NCBI GenBank assembly: GCA_005887995.1
Contig: VBJD01000026.1
Span: 438-64,437 of the forward strand
Origin: Chloroflexota bacterium
GTDB lineage: Bacteria; Chloroflexota; Limnocylindria; P2-11E
Direction: 5' to 3'
Length of the DNA: 64,000 nt
Within the stretch, counting starts at the first letter, position 1. Each line of letters begins with the position of its first letter. This document shows positions 1 to 59,906 of the stretch, one piece after another. Below the pieces are notes generated by a model that did no database searches, had not been told where the DNA came from, and saw only the letters and a list, made by a program, of their open reading frames with translations. A program made the translations under genes and the position numbers.

Positions 1-1
1 G

Positions 2-1090: not shown

Positions 1091-1104
1091 CAGCAGCGGC
1101 CGCA

Positions 1105-2109: not shown

Positions 2110-2140
2110 CGGATCACCGTGGTCGCTCGTGCAGCGCCGT

Positions 2141-4590: not shown

Positions 4591-4679
4591 CTCTGTCCCG
4601 TCCCTTCGAGCCCGTCTGGGCTTCTATCCACTGGGCGTGGAGTGGGCTGGAACGGTCGTTCAGTCCGAACGAACGGCGG

Positions 4680-5714: not shown

Positions 5715-5794
5715 CGCGGCGGAGCCTACGACGGAGTCACCGGTGTATCCGCCGCGCTGTCCTCATGCCCTCGTGGCGTGAGCTACGACGGAAC

Positions 5795-5819
5795 GCTCGT
5801 TCACCGCCGGTGAACGAGC
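5795..5819. promoter_or_regulatory. Perfect 11-bp inverted repeat (GCTCGTTCACC-gcc-GGTGAACGAGC) in a divergent intergenic region
   Basis: Read directly. It lies between the REC regulator start (5714, minus) and the SBP start (5848, plus). Candidate operator or RNA hairpin. Confidence 0.35.
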
Positions 5820-5847
5820 ACTTGCAACGTCGGCGTAGGTTCTTCGC

Positions 5848-6900: not shown

Positions 6901-6927
6901 CACCCGCGCACAAGCCATAGACGCACC

Positions 6928-8078: not shown

Positions 8079-8082
<4 letters not shown>
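6928..8082 (+). CDS. NMT1/SsuA/TauA-like periplasmic substrate-binding protein (COG0715-type), orphan
   Basis: Tat signal STRRQLLIRTLATGATVAAGAALASC. Body resembles nitrate/sulfonate/taurine-type SBPs. The exact start (M1/M4/M7) is uncertain. Its stop overlaps the kinase start (GTGA). Confidence 0.7.
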
Positions 8083-9611
<1,529 letters not shown>

Positions 9612-10634
9612 TCAGTTCGCGCGCGGATATTGGCGCTTCAGCTCCTGCAGGAAGGCGAAATTCGAAGCCAGCTTGACGAGCTGCTGAGGCGTGTTCTTCA
9701 CGAGCTTCGCTTGTGACAGCTGCACTGCGTTGAAAAGGAGACTCGCCTCCGCGTCGAGTTCGCGCCACTCGAAGGTGCAGTTCTTGAGCGTCGCGAGATA
9801 GGTGTCATACGTCTCGGGACTGAACATTCCCGCCTTCACGCCCGCCATGACCGCGGCTGGCAGATCCTTGGCGACGCGATCGTTCGCGCGAAGGAGGGCT
9901 CTGGTGACGCGCTTCGTCGCGTTCGGGTTCTGCTGCGCCCAGTCGCGGTTCACGATGAGCTGGCAGCAGTAGTACCTCGACCAGGTCCCGTCGGTGTGCA
10001 TGTCGATGAGCAGCTTGCCCGGATTTTTCGCTGAAGCGCGCAGGATGGGCACCTGATTGGACAGTGCCAGGATCGCGTCCGACCGGCCTTGCACGAAGGT
10101 GTCGACCGTATTGGTATCGAGAACGAAATTCACGTCCTTTCGCGGGTCGATCCCGACGTACGCGAACATCGCTGCCCAGACGCCATACCACGCGTCGACG
10201 ACGGGATCGGTCGAATTCACCGTGATCGTCTTGCCTTTGAGGTCGCGGATCGAGGCGATCTCCGGCTTGGTCCACACCTCGCCACAGCCTGTATGCAACC
10301 CGCCAAGAGCCTGGATCGGCTTGCCCGCGTCGACATTGGCGACGACCCACTGCGCGTAGCCGATACCGATGTCGCCCTCGCCTCGCGCGACCGCCCCCAC
10401 TGACAGGGGCAGGATCTTCGCGTCGAAGCCTTCCTCCGCGAGGTAGTCGCCGGCGCTCCAGAGAGCCGCGTCGCACGCCACCGACACGATCCGCACCGCG
10501 GTGGTCTCGGGCGGACCCAGCGTCCCGCCCACACCCGACGAAGGCGACGCTGGGCCGCACGCCGCGGCCAGGCCCGCGCCGATGACGCTGCCGCCTAAGG
10601 CGAGGCTCGAGCCAAGCAGCTGCCGCCTCCTCAT
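9612..10634 (-). CDS. NMT1/SsuA-like periplasmic substrate-binding protein, orphan (paralog of 6928..8082)
   Basis: MRRRQLLGSSLALGGSVIGAGLAAAC Tat/lipobox. Shares WSRYYCCQLIVNRDW / WSQYVCCMLVANRDW and C-terminal motifs with 6928..8082. Its stop codon abuts the kinase stop with 0 nt gap. Confidence 0.75.
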   Translation of the reverse strand: MRRRQLLGSSLALGGSVIGAGLAAACGPASPSSGVGGTLGPPETTAVRIVSVACDAALWSAGDYLAEEGFDAKILPLSVGAVARGEGDIGIGYAQWVVANVDAGKPIQALGGLHTGCGEVWTKPEIASIRDLKGKTITVNSTDPVVDAWYGVWAAMFAYVGIDPRKDVNFVLDTNTVDTFVQGRSDAILALSNQVPILRASAKNPGKLLIDMHTDGTWSRYYCCQLIVNRDWAQQNPNATKRVTRALLRANDRVAKDLPAAVMAGVKAGMFSPETYDTYLATLKNCTFEWRELDAEASLLFNAVQLSQAKLVKNTPQQLVKLASNFAFLQELKRQYPRAN

Positions 10635-40175: not shown

Positions 40176-40811
40176 CTATTCGTCGAGCGCCACCACATAC
40201 ATGCGCACCTCGCGCGCGCCCCCGTCGCGGAGGGCGCCCGCCGCGGCGGAGAGCGTCGCGCCGGTCGTCGCGACGTCGTCGATGAGCGCCACACGCAGAC
40301 CGCGCGCGGCACCCGCTTCGGCGACGAACGCGTTGCGCATGTTCGCGACGCGAGCGGCGCGGTCGAGCTGCACCTGCGGCGTCGCGGCACGGATTCGCCG
40401 GAGGGGCGCCCGCAGCGGCAGCCCAACGCGCAGAGCGACCTCGGCCGCGAGCAGCGCCGCCTGGTCGTAGCCGCGGACCCGGGCGCGGTCGACGTGCAGC
40501 ACTGCGGGGACGACGACGTCGAGCACGACGCCGCGAGCGACATCGCGCGCGACACACGCCGCGACGAGGCCGCCCAGCTCCGCGGCGAGGCCGCGCTCGC
40601 CGTCGTACTTGAAGCGATGGATCGCCCTGCGTAGCGGGCCACCGAACGCGGCTGCGGCCTGCAGCCTCCCACGCCGGATCGGGTCGCAGAGATCGCGGCA
40701 GTCGAGGCAGAGCCACTCGCCCGGCGCGTCGCAGCCGGCGCAGCGCGGTGCTAGGAGGGCGTCGAGCAACGAGCGCGCGTCACGAGAGGGCCTCGATGAC
40801 GAGTTCGTCAC
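40176..40811 (-). CDS. comF: ComF-family phosphoribosyltransferase-like competence protein
   Basis: N-terminal Cys pairs (APRCAGCD...WLCLDC). RAIHRFKYDGERGLA. PRTase loop LIDDVATTGATL. Start is GTG 40811 or TTG 40769. Confidence 0.8.
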   Translation of the reverse strand: MTNSSSRPSRDARSLLDALLAPRCAGCDAPGEWLCLDCRDLCDPIRRGRLQAAAAFGGPLRRAIHRFKYDGERGLAAELGGLVAACVARDVARGVVLDVVVPAVLHVDRARVRGYDQAALLAAEVALRVGLPLRAPLRRIRAATPQVQLDRAARVANMRNAFVAEAGAARGLRVALIDDVATTGATLSAAAGALRDGGAREVRMYVVALDE

Positions 40812-41046
40812 CGGCTTGCGTGCCGGTGCGCGCGACCGTTCCAGCCGGGAGCTCGAGCACGTCCTGCGCGCCGCGGGCGCCGATCGAGAACGTCCACGGC
40901 GCAAGTCGCTCGGCAGTCCGGACGACCCGGCGCGCGCGATCGACGAAGACCGCGTCGATCGGGAAGCGCATAAACCACATGGTGATGAGCGACGTCTTCG
41001 TGATGAGCAGGCCCTCGCCGTCATCGAGGCGCGACCGCGGGATCAA
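40780..41046 (-). CDS. DUF192 (COG1430) domain protein; conserved N-terminal part lies upstream of the first canonical start
   Basis: WFMRFPIDAVFVD...DVLELPAGTVARTGTQAGDEL fits DUF192. The conserved CDIADNFFSRAFGL precedes TTG 41046 and is in frame with tadC across the TAG at 41149-41151. Confidence 0.65.
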   Translation of the reverse strand: MIPRSRLDDGEGLLITKTSLITMWFMRFPIDAVFVDRARRVVRTAERLAPWTFSIGARGAQDVLELPAGTVARTGTQAGDELVIEALS

Positions 41047-41148: not shown

Positions 41149-42066
41149 CTAGCCGGTCTGAGAGCAGGAGCTGAGCGCGGACAGCGCGGCGGGTGCGAGG
41201 ATGACGATGAAGAGCGACGGAAAGATGCAACCGACCGTCGGCAGCATGATGAGGATCGGCGCGCGCGCGGCCTTCTCCTCGGCGCGCTGGCGGCGCTCCT
41301 GACGCAGCTGGTCCGACTGGATGCGCAGCACCTTGGACATCGAGACGCCGAGCTGATCGGCCTGGATGATCGCGGAGATGAAGTTCTGGAGCTCCTTCAC
41401 CTCGACGCGCTCGGAGATGCCGCGCAGCGCCTCCTGCCGCGCCTTACCGATGCGCTGCTCCGCGGCTGCGCGCTTGAACTCATCGCACAGCGGCCCCTTC
41501 ATCTTCTCGGTGACCTTCACGACCGCAGCGTCGAAGCCGAGGCCGGCCTCGACCGAGATGGTGAGGAGATCGAGCGCGTCCGGCAGTTGATCGAGGACGG
41601 AGTTCGAGCGGCCGCTGGCCTTGCTCGACAGGTAGAGGTCCGGCGCCATGAAGCCGAGGATCAGACCGCCGAACGCCCCACCGATCGTGAAGGTGAAGTC
41701 GTTGCTCAGCAGGTTCACGATCGCGGACCCGGCGACCGCACCGACGAGCGCGGCGAAGCCCTTCACGCCGATGAAGAACTCGGTGCTCGTGTCCTCCATG
41801 CCGGCGCGCTTGAGCTTCAGGCCGATGCTGTTGGCGGTATTGGCCGGGTAGAACCGCCCGAGGAGCCGCGAGATGCCCTGGATGATCGGCTTCAGCGTGC
41901 GCTCAGAGAGCGGGCGCTGCAGCTCGAGCTCCTCGAGGGTCCGCGGGCGTACCGCGATCTGCTGCAGGCGGGCCTGCACCGGATCGAGCTCCGAGCCCAT
42001 GTTCATCGAGACGACGATGAGGATGACCCCGAGCATGACGACGAGACCAAGGGCGATCGGTGCCAT
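41149..42066 (-). CDS. tadC: Tad pilus inner-membrane platform protein (T2SSF domain)
   Basis: One T2SSF domain (LPDALDLLTISVEAGLGFDAAV...). Follows tadB. Confidence 0.85.
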   Translation of the reverse strand: MAPIALGLVVMLGVILIVVSMNMGSELDPVQARLQQIAVRPRTLEELELQRPLSERTLKPIIQGISRLLGRFYPANTANSIGLKLKRAGMEDTSTEFFIGVKGFAALVGAVAGSAIVNLLSNDFTFTIGGAFGGLILGFMAPDLYLSSKASGRSNSVLDQLPDALDLLTISVEAGLGFDAAVVKVTEKMKGPLCDEFKRAAAEQRIGKARQEALRGISERVEVKELQNFISAIIQADQLGVSMSKVLRIQSDQLRQERRQRAEEKAARAPILIMLPTVGCIFPSLFIVILAPAALSALSSCSQTG

Positions 42067-42069
42067 CGC

Positions 42070-43035
42070 CTAGACCTTGATGCTCACGATCTTCTGGATC
42101 ATGAAGAAGCCGATGACCATCATCACGCCGCCGACGCCGAGCAGGATCTGTCCGAGCAGCTGCGTGAACAGCGGCTGCATGAACGCCGGGTTGATGAAGT
42201 TCAGCGTGATCGCGATACCGATCGGGAGGAACGCGACAAGGTAGCCCGACATCCGGCCCTGCGCGGTGAGCGTGTTGATCTCGCCCTTGATGCGCACGCG
42301 CTCGCGGATGGTGAACGCGATCGTGTCGAGGATCTCGGCGAGGTTGCCGCCGACCTGCTGCTGGACGCCGATCGCGGTGACCATGAGGTCGAGGTCGTCG
42401 CTGCGGATGCGGCGCACAAGGTTCGCGAGCGCCTCCTCCATACCGAGACCGAGGTTCACCTCGCGGACGACCCGGCCCATCTCCTCGCCCATCGGTGAGG
42501 GCGTCTCTCGCGAGACGAGCTCGATCGACTGAAGGAAGCTCGAACCGGCGCGCAGCGAGTTCGAGAGGAGCGTGATCGTGTCCGCGAGCTGCTTGTTGAA
42601 TGCGCTGAGGCGTCCGCCGATGCGGCGGCCGACGTATAGGCGCGGGATCATGTAGCCGAGGATGAGTCCGATGGCCCCGGAGAGCGGGTCGCGGAGCACG
42701 CCGAGCACGAGCCCGAGCCCGAGCGCCGTGCCGACGCGGATGTAGTAGTACTCCGAGACCTTCAGCTTGAGGTTGGCGCGCGCCAGGTCGCGCTGCACCT
42801 TCGTCGAGAACTTCTTGTCGGCGACGTCGCCTGAGAGCGTCGCGAACGGGTCAATGACGTCCTTCTTCTTCTTTTCTTTCTTCGCGACGGACTTCTGCGC
42901 TTCGGCGCCGCCGGCGTAGCGCGCCATGCGGTCCTGGACGCTCATGCCCGAGCCCTTGATCAGGCCGTAGATGCCCGAGAAGAAGAGCAGTACGCCGAAG
43001 AACGCGGCGGCCGGGAGCGCGTACTGCATTGGCAT
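42070..43035 (-). CDS. tadB: Tad pilus inner-membrane platform protein (T2SSF domain)
   Basis: One T2SSF domain (LADTITLLSNSLRAGSSFLQSIE...). ATGA-type overlap with cpaF. Confidence 0.85.
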   Translation of the reverse strand: MPMQYALPAAAFFGVLLFFSGIYGLIKGSGMSVQDRMARYAGGAEAQKSVAKKEKKKKDVIDPFATLSGDVADKKFSTKVQRDLARANLKLKVSEYYYIRVGTALGLGLVLGVLRDPLSGAIGLILGYMIPRLYVGRRIGGRLSAFNKQLADTITLLSNSLRAGSSFLQSIELVSRETPSPMGEEMGRVVREVNLGLGMEEALANLVRRIRSDDLDLMVTAIGVQQQVGGNLAEILDTIAFTIRERVRIKGEINTLTAQGRMSGYLVAFLPIGIAITLNFINPAFMQPLFTQLLGQILLGVGGVMMVIGFFMIQKIVSIKV

Positions 43036-44456
43036 CAGCGGCTGAGCAGGCCGGTCATGTCGCCGAAGACGCCCTGCGGCAGCTTGATGCCGGCAGCCTC
43101 GAACTTCTCGCTGAACTTCGGACGGATACCTGTCGGCCGCATGCGGCCCTGGACCTTGCCGTCGACGTACGCCGTCTGCTCGAAGATGAAGACGTCCTGA
43201 AGGACGACCTGGTCACCTTCCATGCCCTGGACCTCGGTGACGTTCGTGATCTTGCGCGAGCCGTCCTTGAGGCGGCTGATCTGCACGATGAGGTCGAGAG
43301 CAGATGAGATCTGCTCGCGGATCGCGCGCTGCGGCAAGTCGACGCCGGCCATGAGGCACATCGTCTCGATGCGGCTGATCATGTCTCGCGGCGAGTTCGC
43401 GTGACCGGTCGAGAGCGAGCCATCGTGGCCGGTGTTCATGGCCTGGAGCATCGAGAGCGCCTCGCCACCACGGATCTCACCCACGACGATGCGCTCAGGA
43501 CGCATACGGAGGGAGTTCTTCACGAGGTCCATGATCGTGACCGCGCCCTTGCCCTCGATGTTCGCGGCGCGCGACTCGAGGCGCACGACGTGGTCCTGGA
43601 CGAGGCGGAGCTCGGCAGCGTCCTCGATGGTGACGATGCGCTCGTCCTCGGGGATGAAGCCGGACATGATGTTCAGGAGCGTCGTTTTACCGGAGCCCGT
43701 GCCACCGGAGATGAAGATGTTGAGCCGGGCCTCCACGCACGCGCGCATGAACTCCATCATCTCGGGAGTGGCTGTTCCGAACTTGATGTAGTCGTCGACC
43801 GAGATGCGGTACTTGGGGAACTTTCGGATCGTGACGACGGGCCCGTTGAGGGCGAGCGGCGGGATGATGATGTTCACGCGCGAGCCGTCCGGAAGACGCG
43901 CGTCCTCATAGGGCTTCGACTCGTCGACTCGCCGGCCGATCGGCGCGATGATCCGCTCGATGATGCGCATGACGTGCTCGTCGTTCTGGAACGTCGTGTC
44001 GGTGAGGACGAGCTTTCCCTTGCGCTCGCAGTAGACGCGGAACGGGCCGTTGACCATGACCTCGGTGATGGTGTCGTCGTTCAGGAGCGGCTGGATCGGC
44101 CCGAAGCCGAGGATCTCGTCGAGGATCGCTTCGAGCATCTTCTGACGCTCGACGCGTGTGATGACCGCGCCCTCCTCGTCGAGGAACTTGTTGAACATCT
44201 CTTCGATCGAGGCGCGCACGGCCTTCGCGTCGGAGAGGTCGAGGCGGGGGTCGAGGTTGTTGATGATCTTGGTCTGGAGCTTGATCCGGACGTCGCGGTT
44301 GGTGTCGCGGGCCGGGGCGACGCTTTGGGTGAGCGGGCCGGTCTCGGGCGTCTTCGGCGGCTGCTGGCCCGGGGGTTGGGGTGCGCCCGGAGCGGCCGGG
44401 GCGGCCGGCTGCTGACCGGCGGGACGCTGGCCCTCGATACGCCGCAGAAGACTCAT
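43035..44456 (-). CDS. cpaF: CpaF/TadA secretion ATPase
   Basis: Walker A GGTGSGKTT. Asp box VTIEDAAEL. IVVGEIRGGEA. His box TGHDGSLSTGHAN. Confidence 0.95.
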   Translation of the reverse strand: MSLLRRIEGQRPAGQQPAAPAAPGAPQPPGQQPPKTPETGPLTQSVAPARDTNRDVRIKLQTKIINNLDPRLDLSDAKAVRASIEEMFNKFLDEEGAVITRVERQKMLEAILDEILGFGPIQPLLNDDTITEVMVNGPFRVYCERKGKLVLTDTTFQNDEHVMRIIERIIAPIGRRVDESKPYEDARLPDGSRVNIIIPPLALNGPVVTIRKFPKYRISVDDYIKFGTATPEMMEFMRACVEARLNIFISGGTGSGKTTLLNIMSGFIPEDERIVTIEDAAELRLVQDHVVRLESRAANIEGKGAVTIMDLVKNSLRMRPERIVVGEIRGGEALSMLQAMNTGHDGSLSTGHANSPRDMISRIETMCLMAGVDLPQRAIREQISSALDLIVQISRLKDGSRKITNVTEVQGMEGDQVVLQDVFIFEQTAYVDGKVQGRMRPTGIRPKFSEKFEAAGIKLPQGVFGDMTGLLSR

Positions 44457-44607: not shown

Positions 44608-45882
44608 CTATCGCGCGCCGAAGAGCTTGAGGCCGCCCGGTCGCGCCGCTTGCTTGCCCGCCGCGGCACCCGCTTCCGAAGCGACGGGCGCACCGGCAAG
44701 CTTCGCCGCGAGGCTGAAGATGTCCTTACTGACCTGGCTGTCCTTGTGGCTGATGACGAACGGCACGCCGCGGTTCACGGCGAGCACAAGGGTGCGGCCG
44801 TCCGAAACGATGGTGTGCGGGATCTTGCGGCCGAGGCTCGCCTCGACGTCGCTCGCCTTGATGCCGCCCGACGAGTCGTTACGGTTCGCCACGAGCTGCA
44901 CCTTGTCCTGGCTGTAGCCGAGCTTCTCGACGACCTCCATGAAGACGCGGATGTTCTTCAGGCTGGTGATCTCGAGAGTCATGAGCGAGAGGACGACGTC
45001 GGCCGCGTCGAGCATCGTGATGACCTGCTCGCCGTACGACGGCCACGTGTCCACGATGACGTAGGCGTAGCGCTGCCTGAGGATCTCAAGCACGTGCTTG
45101 ATGTGCGCGCCGGTGATGAGCTCGGTCGACTCGGGCGTCGGCGGCGCGAGGAGCACCTTGATGCCGGTCGAGTGCTGCACGAGGATCGATTCGACGACGT
45201 CGGCGTCGGTCTGCTCGAACGAGCCGATGAGATCGGCGATCGTCTTCGCCTTGGGGCTCATGTTCAGGATGACGGCGATGTCGCCGAACGGCAGGCTGCC
45301 GTCGACGAGGACGACCGGCTTCTCGGTGGACTGATGGAGGGCGACCGCGAGATTCGTCGCGATCGTGGTGCGCCCGACGCCGCCCTTCGGTGAGAAGAAC
45401 GAGATGATCTTGCCCGTCTCGACGGCCGGCGCCGCGGCAGCACCGGCGACCTGAGTACCCGCAGCTGGCGCGAGCGGCGCGTAGCGCGCGCGGCGCACCT
45501 TCTCGAGCTCGTGGACGTGGCGGATCGCGTTGATGAGCTCGTCGGCGGAGAACGGCTTCACGAGGAACTCACGCGCGCCGGCGAGCATCGAGCGGCGCAG
45601 GTAATCCTGCTCTCCCTGAACGGACATCATGATGATCGGCGACTCGGGGACGGTGTTCGAGATGATCTCGGTCGCGGTGATCCCATCCATGTCGGGCATG
45701 TTGATGTCCATGAGGATCACGTTCGGCCGTTCCTTCTTCGCGAGGGTCACGGCCTCCTGACCGCCGCCAGCGGTGCCGGCGACAGTCATGTCGGGCTCGA
45801 ACCCGATCAGCTTGGCAAGGTTCTCACGCGTGTCGGCGATGTCGTCGACGATGAGAATGCGGATCTTTTCGCCATCAGCCAC
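44608..45882 (-). CDS. Response-regulator receiver fused to CpaE/TadZ-like ParA/MinD ATPase
   Basis: REC (ILIVDDIADTRE...VILMDINMPDMDG...FLVKPF). Then the deviant Walker A SPKGGVGRTT. Confidence 0.9.
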   Translation of the reverse strand: MADGEKIRILIVDDIADTRENLAKLIGFEPDMTVAGTAGGGQEAVTLAKKERPNVILMDINMPDMDGITATEIISNTVPESPIIMMSVQGEQDYLRRSMLAGAREFLVKPFSADELINAIRHVHELEKVRRARYAPLAPAAGTQVAGAAAAPAVETGKIISFFSPKGGVGRTTIATNLAVALHQSTEKPVVLVDGSLPFGDIAVILNMSPKAKTIADLIGSFEQTDADVVESILVQHSTGIKVLLAPPTPESTELITGAHIKHVLEILRQRYAYVIVDTWPSYGEQVITMLDAADVVLSLMTLEITSLKNIRVFMEVVEKLGYSQDKVQLVANRNDSSGGIKASDVEASLGRKIPHTIVSDGRTLVLAVNRGVPFVISHKDSQVSKDIFSLAAKLAGAPVASEAGAAAGKQAARPGGLKLFGAR

Positions 45883-45965: not shown

Positions 45966-46454
45966 TCAGGATGTTCCGAGCGCGATGACGCCCGTGATCT
46001 CGAGCGCCAGCGCGAGCAGACCACCAAGACCGAGCGCGACCCCGTACGGGATGGACTGCTTCATCAATCCGGAAACGCTCGGCGCGCTCGCGCCGTTCGC
46101 CGGACGCAACCGGCGGGTCGCGATGAACCCGACGGCGATGAGCCCGCCGAGCAGCGCGCCGTACAAAGCCGATACGAGGAAGAAACTTGTGCCGCGCACG
46201 GCGCCGACCGCCATGAGCAGCTTCGCGTCGCCCGCCTTGAGCCCGCCCGCGGCGTAGAAGGGATAGGACAACGCGAACGCGAGCACCAGCGCCGCGACGT
46301 GATCGACGAGCCCGCCGGTGAAGAGACCGCCCGGGATGCCTTCGACGACGCCGAACACAAGGCCGATGAGCATCGCCGGATAGGTGACGGCGTTGGGGAT
46401 CCGGAGCCAGCGGAAATCCGTGTACATCACAACGAGAAGGAGGGCGGCGAGCAC
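45966..46454 (-). CDS. cpaA: Prepilin peptidase, A24 family (CpaA/TadV type)
   Basis: Two catalytic Asp contexts (YTDFRWLRIPN and GLKAGDAKLL). Polytopic. Confidence 0.85.
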   Translation of the reverse strand: MLAALLLVVMYTDFRWLRIPNAVTYPAMLIGLVFGVVEGIPGGLFTGGLVDHVAALVLAFALSYPFYAAGGLKAGDAKLLMAVGAVRGTSFFLVSALYGALLGGLIAVGFIATRRLRPANGASAPSVSGLMKQSIPYGVALGLGGLLALALEITGVIALGTS

Positions 46455-46507: not shown

Positions 46508-46660
46508 CTAGGTGAGGTTGTTGCCGATGTTGCTGAAAATGTTCTGGATCTGACCGCGGAGGAACACCATGGCCACGATGACCGCGATCGCAATCACAGC
46601 GATGATGAGAGCGTACTCGACCAGGCCCTGCCCTTCGTCTTCACGGATGAATGTCAACAT
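46508..46660 (-). CDS. flp: Flp-family type IVb pilin (50 aa prepilin)
   Basis: Inside track ORF 46508..46903. ATG 46660 is preceded by GGAAGGAGGGAG. MLTFIREDEGQG/LVEYALIIAVIAIAV carries the Flp G-x4-EY processing motif. Confidence 0.9.
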   Translation of the reverse strand: MLTFIREDEGQGLVEYALIIAVIAIAVIVAMVFLRGQIQNIFSNIGNNLT

Positions 46661-49173: not shown

Positions 49174-50256
49174 TCAGCCGATGAGCGTGAGCAGCGGCGG
49201 GCCAAGGAACACGAGCAGCAGCGCCGGCAGGATGCAGAAGGTGAGTGGGAAGAGCATGAGGACCGGAAGCCGGCGCGCGCGGGCCTCCGCGCGGTGACGT
49301 TCGGTCGTGCGGATCGAGTCGGCCTGGAGCACGAGAAGCCGCGCGAGCGGCGAGCCGAACCGCATCGACGCGACGACGAGCGCCGTGATGCGGGCTTCGT
49401 CCGGCCCGCGCGCGAAGGTCGCGAGCGCATCGCGCAGCGGCCGGCCGAGCGCGAGGTCCGCGAGGAGTCGACGCGCATCCGCGTCGCGCGTCGTGAGTGA
49501 TGCGCGCTCGACGAGACCCGCGAGCGCGCGCTCGAAGGTGAGGCCGGCCTCGAGTCCGACGACCATGGCGTCGAGGAACGACGCGAGATCAGCGGGCGCG
49601 AGCGTCGAGCGCACGATGCGCCACAGCCACGCAGCTCCGGCGCACTCGAACGCGAGCGCGAGGACCAGCACGATGCGCCCGGCGTCGAACAGCGTCGCGA
49701 GGTAGCCGTCCATCGCGAGCGAGAAGAAGACCACACCGAGCGGCGCGAGCGCGACGAGCACGAGGGCCGATGCCTGACTTTGGGCGAGGAGTGCGGCGCG
49801 CTCCGCGGCGAGCGCAAGCCGGCTTCGCAGCAGCGCGGCGATGCGCTCGAGACTCGCGCTCACGCGACCCCCGCTGCGCGCGAACGCCGAGAGCACGACC
49901 GCGAGCGGCGCGATGTCCTCCGCGGGCACGACGGCGTGGTACTCCACGAGCGCGACGCTTGGCGACGCGCCGAGGGTGAGCGATGCGGCAACGCGTCTCG
50001 TCGCTGCGGCGAGGCGGGGTTCGAGCGTCGGCGCGATCTCGGCGAACGCGACCGAGAGCGACACCCCGCCCGCGAGCGCTCCGGCGAGCGCCTCGATGAG
50101 GCCGGGCAGAGCAGCGCGCGATGCGCTCGTGCCGCACGAGCGACGCGGCCACGCGAGCAGCCGGATCGCGCGCCCGCGGCGCTGGCTCGACCCTCCATCG
50201 ACGAACGTCGCCGCGAACAACGCCGTCGCGGCGAGCCCGAGGATCGCGGCGATCAC
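49174..50256 (-). CDS. Tad-like platform protein with two T2SSF domains in one polypeptide (TadB-TadC fusion-like)
   Basis: Two repeats: PGLIEALAGALAGGVSLSVAFAEI... and FLDAMVVGLEAGLTFERALAGL... Each is followed by TM pairs. ATGA overlap with the upstream ATPase. Confidence 0.7.
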   Translation of the reverse strand: MIAAILGLAATALFAATFVDGGSSQRRGRAIRLLAWPRRSCGTSASRAALPGLIEALAGALAGGVSLSVAFAEIAPTLEPRLAAATRRVAASLTLGASPSVALVEYHAVVPAEDIAPLAVVLSAFARSGGRVSASLERIAALLRSRLALAAERAALLAQSQASALVLVALAPLGVVFFSLAMDGYLATLFDAGRIVLVLALAFECAGAAWLWRIVRSTLAPADLASFLDAMVVGLEAGLTFERALAGLVERASLTTRDADARRLLADLALGRPLRDALATFARGPDEARITALVVASMRFGSPLARLLVLQADSIRTTERHRAEARARRLPVLMLFPLTFCILPALLLVFLGPPLLTLIG

Positions 50257-51365
50257 AGGATGGGCCGCAGCTCGTATGTATCGCGCGCGTCGGGGACGAC
50301 CTCGACGACGTGCGTGATGCGCCGCCGTCCGTCGGGCAGGCGCTGCTGCTGGATGACGATCTCGATCCCGCGGCGGATCTGCTCGCGTATGGCGGCGAGC
50401 GGCAGATCGACGCCTGCCATGAGCGCCATCGTCTCGAGCCGCAGGAGCGCTTCATACGGTCCGTTCGCGTGCGCGGTGGTCAGCGAGCCGCGGTGACCGG
50501 TGTTCATCGCCTGGAGCATGTCGAGCGCCTCGCCACCACGGACCTCACCGATGACGATGCGGTCCGGACGCATGCGGAGCGCGGCGCGAAGCAGCGTGCG
50601 GACGTCGATCGCGCCCGTGCCCTCGACGCTCGGCGACCGCGTCTCGAGTGACACGACGTTGGGCTGCGGCAGCCGGAGCTCGGCCGCGTCCTCGATCGTG
50701 ACGATGCGCTCGCTCTCGCCGATCGCGAACGCGAGCGCGTTGAGCGTCGTCGTCTTACCGCATGATGTCCCGCCGGAGACGAGGATCGAGCGGCGATCGC
50801 GCACGGCACCGACGAGCACGTCCATCGTCGCGGCATCGCACGTGTCGAGACGCACGAGGTCCTCCGGGCCAAGCGCGCGCTGCGTGAAGCGACGGATGGT
50901 GAGGATCGGTCCGGCGAGCGAGATCGGAGGGATCGCCGCGTGCACGCGCGAGCCGTCGGCGAGACGCGCGTCGACAAGCGGATTCGCAAGGTCGATGCGT
51001 CGCCCGAGCGGTGCGACGAGGCGCTCGATGATGAGGACGATCTCGTCCTCAGACGCGAACTGCACTGCCGCACGTTCGAGGCGGCCCTCGCGCTCGACCC
51101 ATACGCCGCGCAGTCCGTTCACCATCACCTCGCTCACGCGTTCGTCGCGCAGCAACGGTGCGAGCGGGCCGAGGCCGAAGAGCCGATCGTCGAAGAAGCG
51201 CTCGAGCTCCACGAGCTCGACGGAGGGCGCGACGATCCGCTCGGCGGTGAGCGTGTCGCGGAGCGCCGCCTTCAGCATCTCGCGGCGCGGCCGCCCGTCT
51301 TGTGCTTCGCGCAAACGCGAGACGAGACCGCGTTCGATGCGCTGCTTCGTCGACTCGGTCGTCAC
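50253..51365 (-). CDS. CpaF/TadA-like secretion ATPase (short form, variant Walker A GGTSCGKTT)
   Basis: VTIEDAAEL, IVIGEVRGGEA, TGHRGSLTTAHAN. Lacks the long N-terminal region of the 43035..44456 paralog. Confidence 0.9.
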   Translation of the reverse strand: MTTESTKQRIERGLVSRLREAQDGRPRREMLKAALRDTLTAERIVAPSVELVELERFFDDRLFGLGPLAPLLRDERVSEVMVNGLRGVWVEREGRLERAAVQFASEDEIVLIIERLVAPLGRRIDLANPLVDARLADGSRVHAAIPPISLAGPILTIRRFTQRALGPEDLVRLDTCDAATMDVLVGAVRDRRSILVSGGTSCGKTTTLNALAFAIGESERIVTIEDAAELRLPQPNVVSLETRSPSVEGTGAIDVRTLLRAALRMRPDRIVIGEVRGGEALDMLQAMNTGHRGSLTTAHANGPYEALLRLETMALMAGVDLPLAAIREQIRRGIEIVIQQQRLPDGRRRITHVVEVVPDARDTYELRPIL

Positions 51366-52291
51366 GACGTGTCGATGAGGAGCAGCTCGCTGAGGTCGTC
51401 GTAGGCGCGACCGAGCGCGCCGCGCACGGCCGCGCGCCCCGAGATCGCCGCGGCGACCGCAGGCTCGTCGCGCGGCAGGGCGCGGAACACGTTGCGTTCA
51501 CCGACGCGCGACCGCGCGCACTGCGAGCCGATGAGCCACACGTCATCGCTCTCGCTCGGCAGCGCCGCGGCGGACATCGGCTCGTCGTACGCGAGGAAGA
51601 GCGTCCGCTGTGCAAGCTGTGCGAGCGATGCCGTGAGCGCGTCGAATGCGATCGGCGCATCGACCAGCACGAGGTCGTCGGATGCGAGGGCGACGCGCAC
51701 GACCGCGAGAAGCAGCGCTCGCGTTGGCGCGAGACCCACGCCGCCGACGCAGCGGACGCCGGCGACGGGTTCGTCGGCCGCGAGCGCCAGCTGCTCGACG
51801 GACATCTCGTCCGCGAGCGCCTCGAGCGACGGCCACGATCGTGGATCGGCGCCGAGCCACCACGCCGCGGCGCCCGATCCGGTCGCGTCGAGGAGCCACA
51901 CGCGGCGCTGCTTCGCGATGCGACGCGCGACGTTGGTCGCGAGGAGCGTTCGTCCGACGCCGCCGCGCGCGCCGGTGACGACCATCATCCGCGTCGCGGC
52001 TCGGGTCCGCGTGGGGAGGATACGAACGAGCGCGGGCCCGAGTCGCGCCGGCTCGATGCCCGCGACGAACGACGCGTCGAGGCCCAGCGCCGCGACGAGC
52101 GGTCGCTCCACGTCGCCGCCGACGAAGACGCGCGGGACGCCGGTCATCGCGGCGGCCCGTCGTACCGCGGCGGCGTCGCGCAGATCCACGACGAGCGCCT
52201 CGGGGCTCGTGTCGCACGGCTCGAAGCCGAGCGCGAGCACCGCTGCATGCAGCGCCTCGTCGCCGAGCACCGCGACGCGCGCCGACGGCAT
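51362..52291 (-). CDS. CpaE/TadZ-like ParA-fold protein with degenerate receiver-like N-domain and degenerate P-loop
   Basis: Trimmed from track ORF 51362..52855 to ATG 52291 (TGATG overlap). VVTGARGGVGRTLLATNVA has the signature Lys replaced by Arg. The N-terminal 100 aa is receiver-shaped but has no acidic pocket that I can see. Confidence 0.65.
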   Translation of the reverse strand: MPSARVAVLGDEALHAAVLALGFEPCDTSPEALVVDLRDAAAVRRAAAMTGVPRVFVGGDVERPLVAALGLDASFVAGIEPARLGPALVRILPTRTRAATRMMVVTGARGGVGRTLLATNVARRIAKQRRVWLLDATGSGAAAWWLGADPRSWPSLEALADEMSVEQLALAADEPVAGVRCVGGVGLAPTRALLLAVVRVALASDDLVLVDAPIAFDALTASLAQLAQRTLFLAYDEPMSAAALPSESDDVWLIGSQCARSRVGERNVFRALPRDEPAVAAAISGRAAVRGALGRAYDDLSELLLIDTS

Positions 52292-52707
52292 CACCGACTC
52301 GAGCGGAGCAGCGCGATGAGCTGCATGCCGCCGGCGCGCGCGCTCGCGAGCGCGGCCGCGTCGCTCTCGTCGACCTCGAGCAAGAGGCCACGGTCGTCGG
52401 CGAGGATCACCGCGGCGCCGTACACGAGAGGCGTCGCGAACGCGCGATCGCCGATCTTCATACCGAAGACATCGAGCAGATCGCCACGTCGGAGGCGCGG
52501 TACCGGCGCGGCGAGCCAGGTCGATGGGACGAGGATCGCCCACGTCGCGGGATGCAGCTCGTCGGCGAGGCTCGTCTGCGCGGCCGCGGGCGCAGTCGCG
52601 GATTGTGACGATGCGAGTGCGCCGAGCGCGAGGAGCGCGGACGCGATCCCGAGCGCGATGCGCCGTCGATCGGGAAACCGCGACCGGACCGTCAGCGACG
52701 GGAGCAT
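52291..52707 (-). CDS. Mini CpaB/RcpC-like pilus assembly protein (138 aa)
   Basis: Trimmed to ATG 52707. N-terminal TM (RRIALGIASALLALGAL). RRGDLLDVFG...VILADDRGLLLEVDESDAAALASARAGGMQLIALLRS resembles the RcpC C-terminal beta-clip domain. No full SAF domain. Confidence 0.5.
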   Translation of the reverse strand: MLPSLTVRSRFPDRRRIALGIASALLALGALASSQSATAPAAAQTSLADELHPATWAILVPSTWLAAPVPRLRRGDLLDVFGMKIGDRAFATPLVYGAAVILADDRGLLLEVDESDAAALASARAGGMQLIALLRSSR

Positions 52708-53117
52708 TCGCCCGCGGGGAATCCGGCGCGGTACGACGCGCCGGACGAGAGGATCGTGACCTCGACGCGGCGGTCGGCGCAGCGGAGCGTGACATCGTCG
52801 ATCGCGCTGCCGCCGTTCGCGGCGCTGGCCTCGGCGGCTGCGGCACGCGCGGCATCGTTCGTCGCGGCGGAGCCGATGACGCGGCCGATGTCCATCACGC
52901 GCTTCTTCGCGACGGCCTCGCGGAGCGCCGCCGCATACGCGTCCGCGACCGCGGTCGTCGCGGCCTCGGCCGCGGCCTCGCCCGCGCGGCGCGACCGTTC
53001 GAGCGCGAAGGCGCGAGCCTGCTGGAGCTGGAGACCGATGAGGACGGCGGCGGCGATCGCGATGATGAACGCCGCGAGCAGGACCGCCTGTCCGCGGTCG
53101 TCCCTCACGGCGTCCAT
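52692..53117 (-). CDS. TadG-like (Tad_N) pseudopilin-like protein
   Basis: RGQAVLLAAFIIAIAAAVLIGL is an N-terminal Tad_N-type segment. Confidence 0.6.
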   Translation of the reverse strand: MDAVRDDRGQAVLLAAFIIAIAAAVLIGLQLQQARAFALERSRRAGEAAAEAATTAVADAYAAALREAVAKKRVMDIGRVIGSAATNDAARAAAAEASAANGGSAIDDVTLRCADRRVEVTILSSGASYRAGFPAGECSRR

Positions 53118-53500
53118 TCGATGCGCCGCGCGGACGACGCCGTGACGACGACCTGCGAGAGACCGACGAAGCGCAGCGGCATCGGGATCGCGTAGCTCGC
53201 GCGCACCACGAGCAGCGAGCCGCGCGGATCGCTGTTGCGCGGCGGCACTCCTGCTGCCGGCTCGATGGCGGTGACGACACGCTCGGCTACCAGCGGCGTC
53301 ACGGCGGCGGCAAGCGTGGAGCGGATCGCCTCGTCGTCGTTCGTGAGCGCGCCGGCGCGCGCCGCTTCGGCGGTCGCATGCTGCAGCGAAAGACGGGCGA
53401 CGCCGACCTCGGCCGTGAGCAGGATCGCGAAGGTCGCGATCATGAGCACGGGTAGCACGAGCGCGAATTCGACGAGCGCCTGGCCGCCGTCGCGCGTCAC
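53105..53500 (-). CDS. TadE-like pseudopilin
   Basis: Trimmed to GTG 53500. GGQALVEFALVLPVLMIATFAIL is the TadE N-terminal signature. Confidence 0.7.
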   Translation of the reverse strand: MTRDGGQALVEFALVLPVLMIATFAILLTAEVGVARLSLQHATAEAARAGALTNDDEAIRSTLAAAVTPLVAERVVTAIEPAAGVPPRNSDPRGSLLVVRASYAIPMPLRFVGLSQVVVTASSARRIEWTP

Positions 53501-53522
53501 GCGCGTGCGCTGCGCCGTCGTC

Positions 53523-54584
53523 TTACGGACATGGTTTTCGCGTCGCGCGCGGCAGCAGCTCACGCAGTCCCTGCACGATGGGGATGCGGAAGATCGGGTT
53601 CGTCTTGCTCGCGTACACGCACGCAAGCACGGTGAGCACGCAGATCGCACCGAAGACATGCCAGCCGAGCTCATCCGACCGGTCCTCGATCGCCTGAACG
53701 AGCAGCGGGCCGCGGTGCTCCGGCGGGACGGCTCTCGTCGTGATCGTGCGGAACGTCAGATCGATCGCTTCGGGATCGTCGAGGATCCCACCGTGACCTT
53801 CGAGCGCGCGACCGAGCGTGCGCGATGCGACACCGGGATCGCGTGCATCGCGCGGCGTGACGAGCGTGTCGTTCGCCTCGCGCAGATCGAGGCGGACGAC
53901 GCCCTTCGGCGGCGGAATCGGCCGCGTGCTCGCGAGATCGCGCACCGCCTGCGACTCGCTCTCCATCCGCAGCCAGAGCAGGCTCTCGTGGATGGCCGGG
54001 TTCGGTCCGCGCGCCACGCTGTTCGCGAGCACGAATCCGCGCGCCGCGTCGCTCCCGCTATGCGGCGCGGACCAGGCGACGTACGTTGCGACGCCGTCCT
54101 CGTGCGACAGTCCTTGGGCGAAGGCACGATCGGCGACGACGCCGCCCATCGAATGGGTCACGATGTGGACGACGGAGTGCGTGGGCGCGAGGGAGCGGAT
54201 GTGATCGCGCAGGTTGATCGCGCTCGCGTCGATCGATCCGAACGTGTCGAACGGGAAGCGCGGATCGGTGCCGAAGCGGACGACGTCCGTGTTCGGCAGC
54301 GCGGCAAGGCGTTCACGCAGCGTGTCGAACGTCCCGTCATCGGGACACGCGCAGGACTGATAGCCGCCGACAAGGATCACGAGCTCCGGGAGCTCCGCGT
54401 CGGTCGGTGCCGGGCTTGCGGTCGGTGCATCGACGTGGCGCAGAACGCCCAGCGGCGGGCGGATGTGAGGGCTCGCAGTGGCATTGCCCCTGGAGCCCTC
54501 GTCCGCTGAGGCGACGAGCGCTGCGGACGCCAGGAAGGGAAGGGTGAAGGCCATGACGACCGCGGCGCGAAGGAGCCGTCGCAT
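53523..54584 (-). CDS. Secreted alpha/beta-hydrolase (lipase/esterase-like, PGAP1-like) with C-terminal TM anchor
   Basis: Signal MRRLLRAAVVMAFTLPFLASAALVASA. Nucleophile elbow VTHSMGG. C-terminal TM WHVFGAICVLTVLACVYA. Lies 22 nt upstream of the TadE-like gene. Confidence 0.7.
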   Translation of the reverse strand: MRRLLRAAVVMAFTLPFLASAALVASADEGSRGNATASPHIRPPLGVLRHVDAPTASPAPTDAELPELVILVGGYQSCACPDDGTFDTLRERLAALPNTDVVRFGTDPRFPFDTFGSIDASAINLRDHIRSLAPTHSVVHIVTHSMGGVVADRAFAQGLSHEDGVATYVAWSAPHSGSDAARGFVLANSVARGPNPAIHESLLWLRMESESQAVRDLASTRPIPPPKGVVRLDLREANDTLVTPRDARDPGVASRTLGRALEGHGGILDDPEAIDLTFRTITTRAVPPEHRGPLLVQAIEDRSDELGWHVFGAICVLTVLACVYASKTNPIFRIPIVQGLRELLPRATRKPCP

Positions 54585-54647: not shown

Positions 54648-55373
54648 CTAAGGGCGAGCGCGGGCGACCGCGGCGGCCTGCTCGTTCGCGAGACGCTCCT
54701 CGCGATCTTCAAGTGGCGAAAGACGCACTGTCCCGTGGCGGCGCTCGAGCGCCCAAGTGAGGAGCTTGTCGGCGAGCCACGGATTCTTCGGAAGGCACGA
54801 TCCATGGCTGTACGTCCCGACGAGCTTTCCCTGCACGGCGCCTTCGGTGTGGTCCTCGCCGTTGTTGCCGTGACCCACGACGACCGCACCGAGCGGGACC
54901 GCGCGCGGACCGAGATACGTGCGACCGCTGTGGTTCTCGAACCCGACGAGCAGACCCTCGGGCGTCTCCGCCACGAGGTTACCGACGAAGCGCTGCTTTC
55001 CCGCCTTCGTGTGCACATCGAGCACGCCGAGCCCCGGGATCGGGTCACCGACCTCGGGCAGGTACTCCGTGCCGAGCAGCTGGTACCCACCGCAGACCGA
55101 GAACGCGGCCGCGCCGCCCGCGATGGCCTTGCGCACCGCGTCGCCGTTCGGGCCCTGCAGGTCGGCGCCGACGACGTCCTGCCCGATGTCCTGTCCGCCA
55201 CCGAAGAAGAACAGATCGGGCCAATCGGGATCGAACGTCATGCCCGTCGTGTACGCGCGCACCTCGACGGCGATGTCGCGCCAGCGCGCACGCTGCGACA
55301 GAGCGATGACGTTGCCGCGATCGCCGTAGATCCCCATGAGGTCCGGGTACAGGTGAGCGATGCGCAGATCCAC
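54648..55373 (-). CDS. gatD: Lipid II isoglutaminyl synthase, glutaminase subunit GatD
   Basis: Aligns along its full length with GatD as I remember it (IAHLYPDLMGIYGDRGNVIAL, FFGGGQD, CGGYQLLG, VGFENHSGRT, GNNGED, GTYSHG). GTG start, TAGTG overlap with the upstream gene. Confidence 0.9.
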   Translation of the reverse strand: MDLRIAHLYPDLMGIYGDRGNVIALSQRARWRDIAVEVRAYTTGMTFDPDWPDLFFFGGGQDIGQDVVGADLQGPNGDAVRKAIAGGAAAFSVCGGYQLLGTEYLPEVGDPIPGLGVLDVHTKAGKQRFVGNLVAETPEGLLVGFENHSGRTYLGPRAVPLGAVVVGHGNNGEDHTEGAVQGKLVGTYSHGSCLPKNPWLADKLLTWALERRHGTVRLSPLEDREERLANEQAAAVARARP

Positions 55374-55777
55374 TACTTGTTCGCCTTCTTGCTCGTGTTC
55401 TTGCTCGCGGTCTTCTTCGTCTTCGCGGTCTTCGCCGGAAGCGTCTCCGCATACGCGAGGCCGTCGGCGATCCAGCGCTTGAGCGAGGCGCCCTTCATGT
55501 CCTTCGCCGGCACCTCGACGTACTCGCCCATCGGTCGCCCCGGCATCGGCTCGAATCGGCGCGCGCCGGCCTTCGTGGCTTTCGCCCGACCGGTCTCGTC
55601 GAGGCGCACCGCGATCTTCGGTCCGAATGTGAACGCGAACATGTTCCCGTTCACGAAGAGCGCCGGGTAGCTGAACATCGTCTTCCGCGCGATGTCGCTT
55701 CGCGCCGGCGACGCTCCGTCGAACGCCGCGACCACCTCCGGCGGCGTCTTCGTGAACTTCGGCATCTCCCGCGGCAT
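55373..55777 (-). CDS. TfoX N-terminal domain protein with Lys-rich tail
   Basis: KTMFSYPALFVNGNMFAFTFGPKIAVRLDE...YVEVP fits the TfoX_N pattern (MFGG..lf.nG.mFa.v....l.lK). Tail AKTAKTKKTASKNTSKKANK. Confidence 0.65.
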   Translation of the reverse strand: MPREMPKFTKTPPEVVAAFDGASPARSDIARKTMFSYPALFVNGNMFAFTFGPKIAVRLDETGRAKATKAGARRFEPMPGRPMGEYVEVPAKDMKGASLKRWIADGLAYAETLPAKTAKTKKTASKNTSKKANK

Positions 55778-58508: not shown

Positions 58509-59906
58509 CTACCGGCCCTTGGGCGGATAGCCCTCGAGCGCGTACTCCTTGATCTTCGCGTAGAGCAGACGACGGTAGATGCCGAGCATCTCCGCAGCCT
58601 TCGAACGATTCCCGCCGGCGTCGCGGAGTGCCTTCATGATGAGGTCCTTCTCAAACTGCGCGACCGACTTCTTGAAGAACGACTTCTCGGCCGAGATCTC
58701 GTCGCCACCCTCGCCCTCGCCATCGTGCTCAGCATCGTGCTCGCCGAACGGGAGCTCGCGGCTCGTGATGACCTGGCCGCGCGAGAGGACGACAGCACGC
58801 TCGATGACGTTCTCGAGCTCGCGCACGTTGCCGGGCCAGTTGTATTCGTTAAGGCGCCTGAGCGCCTCCTCGCTGATCGTCGCGGGCTGCGCGCTCGCGC
58901 TGTACCGGTGCTTGGCGAGGAAGTGCTCGACGAGCGCAGGGACGTCCTCCTTGCGCTCGCGCAGCGGCGGCATGTGGATGTTGATGACGTTCAGCCGGTA
59001 GAAGAGGTCGTCGCGGAACCTGTTCGCCTCGACCTGTTTCCCGAGATCCTTGTTCGTGGCGACGATGACGCGGATGTCGACCTTGATCGGGATCGATGAG
59101 CCGACGCGCTCGATCTTTCGCTCCTGAAGAACGCGCAACAGCTTCGTCTGCGTCGCGAGGCTCATCTCGCCGATCTCATCGAGGAAGATGGTTCCTTTGT
59201 CAGCGAGCTCGAACCGTCCCTTGCGCGTGGCCATCGCGCCGGTGAACGAGCCCTTCTCGTGACCGAAGAGCTCGGCCTCAAGCAACGTCTCCGGCAATGC
59301 GGCGCATGAGACCTTCACGAGTGGACCGCTGCGACGCGTCGAGTTGTAGTGGAGCGCTTCGGCGACGAGCTCCTTGCCGGTACCGCTCTCGCCGGTGATG
59401 AGAACGGTGGCATCGGCCTTCGCGACCTTGCCGATGGTCTTGTAGACCTCCTGCATCGCGGCGGAGTTGCCGACGATACGCTCGGTCTGCACGAGCGAGG
59501 AGATCTCGTCACGCAGCACCTCGACCTCCTGCGTGAGGTCCTGGTACTGGAAGGCGCGTTTGACGGTGTACGAGATCTTGTCGAGCTCGAACGGCTTGGT
59601 GATGTACTCGAACGCGCCGAGCTCCATCGCCTTGATCGCGGCGTTGGAGGTGCCGAAGGCGGTCATGATGAGCACCGCGGTCCGGGGCGAAGCGGTCTTC
59701 ACCTTCTGGAGCGCCTCGATGCCGTCGAGCTCCGGCATCCGCAGGTCCATGATTACGAGGTCAGGCCCCGAGTCCTTGACTTGTTCGACGACCTCGCTGC
59801 CTGTCGCCGCCTCGAGCACGGCGTAGCCTTGGTCGGTCAGGAGCTGCTTCAAAAGGGAACGGATCGAGGCGTCGTCATCGGCCACCAAAATCGTCCGCTG
59901 GGCCAT
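58509..59906 (-). CDS. Sigma-54-dependent response regulator (NtrC family: REC, AAA+, Fis-type HTH)
   Basis: REC ([12 protein letters not shown]...[13 protein letters not shown]). Walker [15 protein letters not shown] variant [15 protein letters not shown]-terminal [23 protein letters not shown]. Confidence 0.95.

Follow-up and report, generated by a model that had tools for sequence, protein, structure and literature searches.

A Tad gene module without a major pilin, headed by a lipase-like ectoenzyme, adjoins a canonical Tad module in the Limnocylindria

Tad pili are usually pictured as filaments with a single motor, a CpaF that serves for extension as well as for retraction. In this report we focused on a 64-kb stretch of DNA from a Chloroflexota bacterium (contig VBJD01000026.1, hereafter the window), which carries two neighbouring sets of tad genes, and performed a computational analysis of the set at 49174-54584 on the minus strand (module 2) and of its relation to the set that follows it, from Flp to TadC (module 1). 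This leads us to suggest, with slightly better than even confidence, that the seven genes of module 2 are one part of a bipartite, secretin-less, monoderm-type Tad/type IVc pilus locus ancestral to Ca. Limnocylindria, whose two modules would cooperate in a three-step assembly pathway described below. The Limnocylindria locus would then be a class-wide, strongly conserved natural case of two motors that have a single Flp, a single peptidase and a single set of minor pilins in common.

The first finding of this study is the gene set itself and its order, which are confirmed and lie far beyond chance. An initial annotation, made from the letters of the sequence, had described seven co-directional, mostly overlapping genes, and all seven tightly packed open reading frames (ORFs) were recovered at their coordinates (Table 1). 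It had also described the cluster as lacking flp and a prepilin peptidase gene, and the neighbouring locus as having flp, the peptidase and an ATPase but no pseudopilins and no CpaB, which is what we find. Module 2 holds no Flp gene on either strand and no A24 prepilin peptidase gene, the latter being present in module 1, and module 1, from Flp to TadC, has no TadE, TadG or CpaB gene. Strict and relaxed six-frame motif scans for a hidden flp were run over the whole window and returned only Flp and TadE as proteins with a G-x4-E[YF] motif, together with one RGQA-type N terminus, and no further candidate in module 2. Flp, the peptidase, TadE, the TadG-like protein and CpaB are therefore single-copy in the window, and the duplicated components are the ATPase, the platform and CpaE only.

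Exact protein matches, TMC30977 among them, assign the window to soil Chloroflexota of the class Ca. Limnocylindria. The arrangement of its tad genes is not peculiar to one genome. When a single genome of each GTDB species was scanned with a profile of TadBC, the fused platform protein of module 2, 67 loci came up, whose 20-kb neighbourhoods were compared; all loci more than 53% identical belong to Limnocylindria or unclassified Chloroflexota, bar a few evidently mis-binned contigs. Mapping by tblastn and reconstruction of ORFs gave one order on one strand, MurT-GatD-hydrolase-TadE-TadG-like-CpaB-CpaE2-CpaF2-TadBC, then a gap of 0 to 7.5 kb, then Flp-peptidase-CpaE1-CpaF1-TadB-TadC. The order from the hydrolase to TadBC read in the window is thus conserved across genomes, with the hydrolase first, directly upstream of TadE, in all 42 loci that extend more than 1.2 kb upstream of TadE. 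The overlaps between successive genes from the hydrolase to TadBC (-4, -13, -16, -4, -4 and -4 nt) are fixed almost everywhere across species. Homologues of the two end genes of the module occur in similar numbers (363 matches for the hydrolase and 416 for TadBC, several of them on common contigs), and the three contexts inspected for hydrolases 49-60% identical have the same gene order. In 23 of 54 related loci, less than 300 nt separates the end of TadBC from the start of Flp, and module 1 always comes next on the same strand. The 2.5-kb spacer between TadBC and Flp in the window, which holds a major facilitator superfamily (MFS) transporter gene on the minus strand and a kinase-like and an RDD gene on the opposite strand, is therefore an insertion into one 13-gene locus, which these three genes entered in the lineage of the window.

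All seven module 2 genes have ratios of nonsynonymous to synonymous substitution rates (dN/dS), taken from pairs with unsaturated dS, of between 0.06 (CpaF2) and 0.26 (TadG-like), and none shows a frameshift or premature stop in about 45 species, which places every gene of the module under purifying selection. Proteins of module 2 have a median identity to those of the window of 42-74%, vs 75-83% for module 1 motor proteins and 92% for Flp. The identity of Flp, which reaches 100% across the class, reveals an unusually strong constraint for a surface filament subunit. One related locus departs from the pattern: in L065 (positions 2780-10423; JBBPIQ010000001, a 1.19-Mb contig), genes for a Ser/Thr kinase and a subtilase, along with unknown genes, all of lower GC content, stand in the place of module 2 and its hydrolase. 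Remnants persist there as a C-terminal piece of CpaF2 and a 163-aa TadC-like half of TadBC, and the genes from Flp to TadC are intact. A foreign origin of module 2, considered on account of its GC content (0.72 vs 0.65, the window ranging from about 0.65 to 0.72), was rejected: GC at third codon positions is 0.83-0.91, not higher than the 0.82-0.94 of module 1, and the excess lies in codon positions 1 and 2, in keeping with Ala/Arg-rich proteins, and recurs in all relatives.

The second finding is that the two modules carry different types of motor. The ATPase of module 2, annotated as a short CpaF-like protein, is indeed one: CpaF2 matches T2SSE at 1.8e-54, its Walker A, Walker B, Asp box and His box are intact and conserved in 61 sequences, and its best PDB sequence match is CpaF of Caulobacter crescentus (2.2e-86). 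It is 49% identical to CpaF1. The latter aligns to residues 39-489 of C. crescentus CpaF, C-terminal motif included, and keeps SPR at the position of Pro386-Arg387, whereas the alignment of CpaF2 reaches no further than residue 441 of 501, some 12 residues before the protein ends, and there is no equivalent of Arg387, with GPYE in place of SPRE and thus Tyr at that site. The platforms differ as well, with about 150 residues before the T2SSF domain in each of TadB1 and TadC1, vs about 46 before the first T2SSF domain of TadBC and almost none before the second. In Caulobacter, Arg387 and CpaF's C-terminal face are needed for retraction, and loss of the C-terminal motif, of Arg387 and of the platform N termini marks "single-orientation" Tad motors (Whitfield et al. 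2026, preprint, 10.64898/2026.02.24.707734). The pair CpaF2/TadBC has these sequence marks of a single-orientation (extension-only) motor, an orientation that is thereby predicted from sequence: the C-terminal motif and Arg387 are lost and the platform N termini are short. It differs from the motors of the preprint in standing beside a dual-orientation-type motor in one locus, and CpaF2 retains the beta13-beta14 turn. The module 1 motor therefore has the appearance of a bifunctional machine, and that of module 2 looks like an assembly- or extension-only one. Assignment of CpaF2 to the actinobacterial TIGR03819 type was tried and rejected, because CpaF1 scores higher on that model (339 vs 308 bits).

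TadBC deserves separate mention. The initial annotation correctly saw two T2SSF domains in this 360-aa protein; its comparison to the layout of GspF did not hold. The N-terminal half matches TadB1 (9e-7) and the C-terminal half TadC1 (9e-17), the opposite order to that of the ancestral archaeal two-domain platform, in which the TadC-like part is N-terminal (Denise et al., PMC6668835). TadBC therefore arose secondarily, by fusion of neighbouring tadB and tadC genes, and is not a GspF-like relic. The family is restricted to Limnocylindria. A HMMER search of the whole library for fused TadBC proteins elsewhere returned only 14 matches below 1e-30, plus scattered two-domain proteins that are 30-36% identical, and in the one context opened among these (L072) the protein is encoded by a lone gene and not in a Tad cluster.

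Three further proteins of module 2 have no counterpart in module 1. TadE, annotated as a TadE-like pseudopilin, matches PF07811 (E = 2.2e-9), and its prepilin-peptidase motif G/QAxVEF is invariant in 47 sequences; it starts at 53500 (GTG) or at 53530, with a GTG that overlaps the hydrolase stop codon. No second, TadF-type protein with Glu5 lies beside TadE in module 2. The label "TadG-like (Tad_N)" given to the next protein could not be upheld as regards Tad_N, since neither the window copy nor its 21 orthologues have a match to PF13400 or any other consistent Pfam match. A PDB profile search and a Foldseek search with its AlphaFold2 (AF2) model gave no significant match, and comparison with an actinobacterial TadG-like protein by hhalign led to no family assignment. 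The model (pLDDT 90.6) has a helix spanning residues 2-70, two short helices and a three-stranded sheet, and hhalign to TadE (76%) aligns only the first 18 residues, which include the RGQA leader. The modelled architecture is pilin-like, and the TadG label is plausible. The mini-CpaB was reported to hold little more than the RcpC beta-clip, and this is borne out by its orthologues, 22 of 28 of which match Pfam RcpC (PF16976; best 8.3e-7), although the window copy has no Pfam match above threshold.

The CpaE-like protein, CpaE2, is ParA/MinD-like over its C-terminal two-thirds (profile vs PDB: Soj at 2.9e-7, also MinD), and hhalign to CpaE1 (94.7%) aligns the ATPase domain only. Its Walker A (ARGGVGRT) has Arg in place of both lysines, a motif kept in 52 sequences, and it matches NF047398, the KGGVGR-variant family, at 8.8e-5. 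The initial annotation was right about the likeness to CpaE and about the Lys-to-Arg change in the P-loop; the "degenerate receiver" that it saw in the N-terminal domain of about 100 aa was not substantiated, since hhalign gives no alignment of this domain to the receiver (REC) domain of CpaE1. The Walker A of CpaE1 (KGGVGRT) also has Arg for the P-loop Lys and fits the NCBIfam entry NF047398 "KGGVGR-motif variant." The P-loop change is therefore not special to module 2, and the additional change in CpaE2 is loss of the signature lysine.

The distribution of parts between two tad gene sets has a precedent, since the pattern of complementary halves is, by analogy, already established in another monoderm, Micrococcus luteus. 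There, tad-1 and tad-2 each contain tadA-tadB-tadC; tad-1 lacks flp, its only pilin-type products being TadE/F-like proteins (about 150 aa, G/XXXXE[FS]), whereas flp belongs to tad-2, in which TadB and TadC form a fused ORF. The sole peptidase gene lies outside both clusters, and transformation is lost when genes of either one are deleted (Angelov et al. 2015, PMC4322843). The paralogues are read as non-redundant in a review by Pelicic (PMC6916266). The likeness to Limnocylindria is extensive: two tadA-B-C sets with flp in one of them, TadE-like pilins in the flp-less set, a single peptidase outside that set, a fused TadB-TadC and translational coupling of genes. There are also differences. 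Both sets are needed for transformation in M. luteus, whereas cooperation in Limnocylindria is deduced from sequence; the sets are separate loci there and adjacent here, contiguous in many genomes; the fused platform belongs to the flp set (tad-2) there and to the flp-less set here; and Limnocylindria have a CpaE/TadZ-like gene in both sets, vs none in M. luteus, and add a CpaB/RcpC-like gene and a lipase-like hydrolase. The M. luteus case, fused TadBC included, undercuts the statement in the initial annotation that such a use of Tad components had not been seen described. What is new is the presence of CpaE-like and RcpC-like genes in a flp-less set, and the combination of a dual-orientation-type and a single-orientation-type motor around one pilin/peptidase set. 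Together with M. luteus, this suggests that two non-redundant Tad motors per filament system are a recurrent monoderm solution.

Of the two interpretations offered by the initial annotation, the comparative data favour the one in which the clusters are complementary halves of a single system, with two ATPases and two platforms retained, because the modules are contiguous in 23 of 54 loci, the non-motor parts are single and M. luteus provides a precedent. Module 1 would contribute the only Flp, the only peptidase and a full-length Caulobacter-like motor (REC-CpaE, CpaF1, TadB and TadC), and module 2 the only minor pilins (TadE and the TadG-like protein), together with a CpaB/RcpC-like membrane protein and a further motor that is streamlined and non-redundant. 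In a first step, the module 1 peptidase would mature Flp and cleave TadE at G/QALVEF. In a second, the translationally coupled module 2 proteins would form an assembly-only platform and build a TadE/TadG-like priming or tip stub, or a short pseudopilus. In a third, the CpaF1 motor would polymerise and retract the Flp fibre. This three-step model seems the most economical because translational coupling ties the motor genes of module 2 to those of the only minor pilins and to the CpaB-like gene. The locus makes CpaF1 and CpaF2 a sequence-defined pair with which to probe what a second motor may do, be it priming, tip assembly or production of a pseudopilus. Several points weigh against it. Adjacency within one class could be inherited synteny and not functional coupling. 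More minor pilins, Flp or peptidases could be encoded elsewhere in genomes of which 20-kb neighbourhoods were covered. The extension-only assignment of motor 2 depends on the AlphaFold 3-derived criteria of the preprint. In L065, module 1 may be able to work alone, or the lineage may have lost the function. Finally, the organisms are all uncultured metagenome-assembled genomes (MAGs) and the reading rests on sequence comparison, which limits its impact.

The characterization of the enzyme that heads module 2 is another significant outcome of this study, and it bears directly on the alternatives. The initial annotation described an alpha/beta-hydrolase with a signal peptide, a THSMGG nucleophile elbow and a C-terminal transmembrane (TM) anchor, and each of these features was found. 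The protein matches Pfam PGAP1 (E = 7.5e-6; score 26.3 vs a gathering threshold of 24.3) and, more weakly, Palm_thioest and DUF676. H144, S145, G147, G148, D233, D239 and H264 are invariant in 43 homologues, as is an A-x-A/D signal-peptidase site (ASA/D). Of 42 homologues, 40 have a hydrophobic N-terminal signal and 40 a TM helix at the C terminus, the latter followed by a short basic cytoplasmic tail ending in LPRAxRKPCP. The AF2 model (pLDDT 83.4) is a plain alpha/beta hydrolase whose best Foldseek matches are the Streptomyces lipase MAS1 (5h6g), Bacillus subtilis LipA (1isp) and CALB, with a probability of 1.0 for 5h6g and 1isp and a TM-score of 0.73 on the target 1isp. Its dN/dS is about 0.20. 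From sequence and model it is predicted to be an outward-facing, membrane-anchored lipase/esterase-like enzyme. It belongs to the Tad operon and not to the MurT/GatD genes, because its distance from GatD varies, from 63 nt in the window to between 65 nt and 4.5 kb among relatives, the link being interrupted by insertions of 0.6-4.5 kb in 12 loci, and that from TadE is never broken. Most likely, it would modify some ester-linked component of the envelope in the immediate surroundings of the machine, a part comparable to that played by dedicated wall hydrolases in other trans-envelope machines. Our literature search found nothing on Limnocylindria pili or hydrolase-headed Tad operons, and in a Gardnerella preprint the term "T2SS/Tad" is no more than a label used for annotation. 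Also new is that a lipase-like ectoenzyme is coupled to a Tad module in a fixed manner throughout a class, and this invariant, translationally coupled enzyme is a new candidate accessory factor for passage of a pilus through the monoderm envelope.

The presence of this enzyme invites a different explanation, in which module 2 is an independent Tad-derived pseudopilus, with TadE (and the TadG-like protein) forming a short piston on CpaF2/TadBC that exports, releases or positions the hydrolase and borrows from module 1 only the peptidase. Module 2 does have its own motor, platform, CpaE-like and pilin-like proteins, translation of the hydrolase gene is coupled to that of TadE in 42 of 42 loci, the hydrolase was lost together with module 2 in L065, and the extension-only marks of CpaF2 would suit a piston that works without motor retraction. 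Like the type II secretion system (T2SS), module 2 combines an ATPase with a two-domain platform and pseudopilin-like proteins, and has a lipase-like gene next to them; lipases are classical T2SS substrates. However, the parts of module 2 are of the Tad and not the Gsp lineage, no homologue of GspC, GspL, GspM or GspG-K and no secretin was found among the module genes, and Flp follows TadBC immediately in many genomes. Moreover, the would-be substrate carries a Sec signal and, in 40 of 42 homologues, a TM anchor at the C terminus with a cytoplasmic tail, suggesting that it takes the Sec route and stays membrane-bound, and Chloroflexota have no outer membrane and Tad systems without secretins (PMC12488501). 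We therefore regard an independent pseudopilus as unlikely. The T2SS-like piston with hydrolase cargo proposed in the initial annotation is unsupported because the enzyme is membrane-anchored, and a secreted cargo is not a likely role for a protein with these predicted features. A variant that accommodates the anchor, in which module 2 is a self-contained, extension-only pseudopilus that works beside the Flp pilus, independently of it, to deploy the anchored lipase-like enzyme, for instance by pushing or presenting it through the thick monoderm wall or having it released by cleavage ("enzyme-on-a-piston"), seems to us a shade less likely still; if true, it would be a secretin-free, T2SS-like use of Tad parts.

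Division of labour between two motors on one Flp fibre, in the manner of PilB and PilT, with one extending and the other retracting or each answering different signals, is about as doubtful as the independent pseudopilus. It would fit two CpaF paralogues that are 49% identical and each have their own platform, the bona fide Response_reg domain of CpaE1, to whose receiver the N-terminal domain of CpaE2 does not align, and the non-redundancy of the M. luteus paralogues. However, a retraction role for CpaF2 is unlikely, as it is without the surfaces connected with retraction in the preprint and CpaF1 is equipped for both directions, and the tight coupling of CpaF2 to the minor pilins would be left unexplained. 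The weakest proposal, very improbable in our view, is that module 2 is a redundant or decaying motor duplicate kept by linkage, with the hydrolase belonging to the MurT/GatD peptidoglycan-amidation genes: faster evolution of module 2 (median identity 42-74% vs 75-92%), the lost Walker lysines of CpaE2, the one genome that has lost the module and the 63 nt between hydrolase and GatD in the window would agree with it, but it is largely refuted by selection and synteny, namely the absence of frameshifts and stops, dN/dS values of 0.06-0.26, intact catalytic residues in CpaF2 and the hydrolase, fixed gene overlaps, a GatD-hydrolase link broken in 12 loci where hydrolase-TadE never is, and the location of the only minor pilins in module 2.

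Set against canonical Tad/Flp systems (Aggregatibacter tad, Caulobacter cpa and, among monoderms, Bifidobacterium breve), module 2 shares an ATPase of the CpaF/TadA clade, a T2SSF platform, a ParA/MinD-type CpaE/TadZ, a TadE with a G/XXXXEF signal and an RcpC-like domain. It differs in having neither Flp nor TadV, in the fusion of TadB and TadC, which are canonically two genes, in a CpaE2 without both Walker lysines, in a CpaF2 without N- and C-terminal extensions and in the hydrolase at the head of its operon. The RcpC-like protein also sets it apart from other monoderm Tad systems, RcpC being listed as missing in monoderms (PMC6916266). Another comparison is with the actinobacterial helicase/secretion neighbourhood of the Rv3654c-Rv3660c type, which likewise has a short CpaE-like protein, a TadA of about 350 aa, short TadB and TadC, and small TadE/TadG-like proteins. 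An instance in an Acidimicrobiia MAG (L069, positions 1-8459) runs HAD hydrolase, CpaE-like, short TadA, TadB, TadC, Flp, TadE, TadG-like, with the DEAH helicase that comes next encoded on the opposite strand. It differs from module 2 in its order (CpaE-TadA-TadB-TadC-Flp-TadE-TadG), its own Flp, its separate TadB and TadC and its flanking helicase and HAD hydrolase. The L069 ATPase matches CpaF2 (47%) better than CpaF1. Being a textbook example of the compact Tad type of actinobacteria, this cluster offers a useful outgroup to module 2.

Table 1. Genes of the two Tad modules in the window
Feature	Coordinates	Strand	Basis or remarks
Hydrolase, 353 aa (module 2)	53523..54584	-	Sec signal, lipase-like ectodomain, C-terminal TM; Pfam PGAP1
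TadE minor pilin (pseudopilin; module 2)	53105..53530	-	PF07811; class III signal G/QALVEF
Pilin-like "TadG-like" protein, 141 aa (module 2)	52692..53117	-	DxRGQA leader without Glu5; long N-terminal helix
Mini CpaB/RcpC-like protein, 138 aa (module 2)	52291..52707	-	N-terminal TM and beta-clip; RcpC matches in orthologues
CpaE/TadZ-like protein, CpaE2 (module 2)	51362..52294	-	ParA/MinD fold; Walker A ARGGVGRT
Short CpaF/TadA ATPase, CpaF2, 370 aa (module 2)	50253..51365	-	T2SSE 1.8e-54
Fused TadB-TadC platform, TadBC, 360 aa (module 2)	49174..50256	-	PF00482, two T2SSF stretches, 1e-26
Flp major pilin, 50 aa, sole one in window (module 1)	46508..46660	-	Motif scan; Pfam Flp_Fap in related locus L001
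A24 prepilin peptidase (TadV-type), sole one in locus (module 1)	45966..46454	-	Pfam Peptidase_A24 in orthologous genes; synteny
REC-CpaE, CpaE1 (module 1)	44608..45882	-	Genuine Response_reg domain
CpaF1, 473 aa, full-length (module 1)	43035..44456	-	Synteny; alignment to C. crescentus CpaF
TadB, TadB1 (module 1)	42070..43035	-	Synteny
TadC, TadC1 (module 1)	41149..42066	-	Synteny

The surroundings of the locus add several minor observations. About 110 nt past TadC lies a DUF192 gene (40780-41046, minus strand; Pfam 2.9e-15) that is kept in 25 of 25 loci with enough flank and may be the 14th gene of the pilus locus. It is followed by a ComF-like phosphoribosyltransferase gene (40176 to about 40750, minus strand), found in at least 10 related loci. 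On the other side, GatD, a TfoX_N-domain protein and MurT are encoded upstream of the hydrolase; the TfoX_N gene (55373-55777, minus strand; 5.6e-12), between MurT and GatD and just upstream of the Tad locus, is found in 7 of 41 relatives by tblastn at 1e-5, and Pfam calls also show it in loci L001-L004. The TfoX_N and ComF-like genes, taken with the M. luteus precedent, give a weak hint, by analogy, of a role in DNA uptake. A scan for promoters and terminators found nothing above shuffled sequence, and upstream of flp there was no convincing match to a sigma-54 promoter (-24/-12) and scant upstream conservation. A sigma-54-type response regulator (REC, Sigma54_activat and HTH_8 domains) is encoded at 58509-59906 on the minus strand and also lies upstream in 57 related loci. 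As for the mis-binned contigs, four Limnocylindria-type loci (L008, L035, L051 and L064) occur in MAGs labelled Acidiferrales, Udaeobacter, Bathyarchaeia and Saccharimonadales, which we attribute to binning contamination, and a single MAG (SMAG_U4607) holds two diverged versions of the locus on two contigs (L024 and L040).

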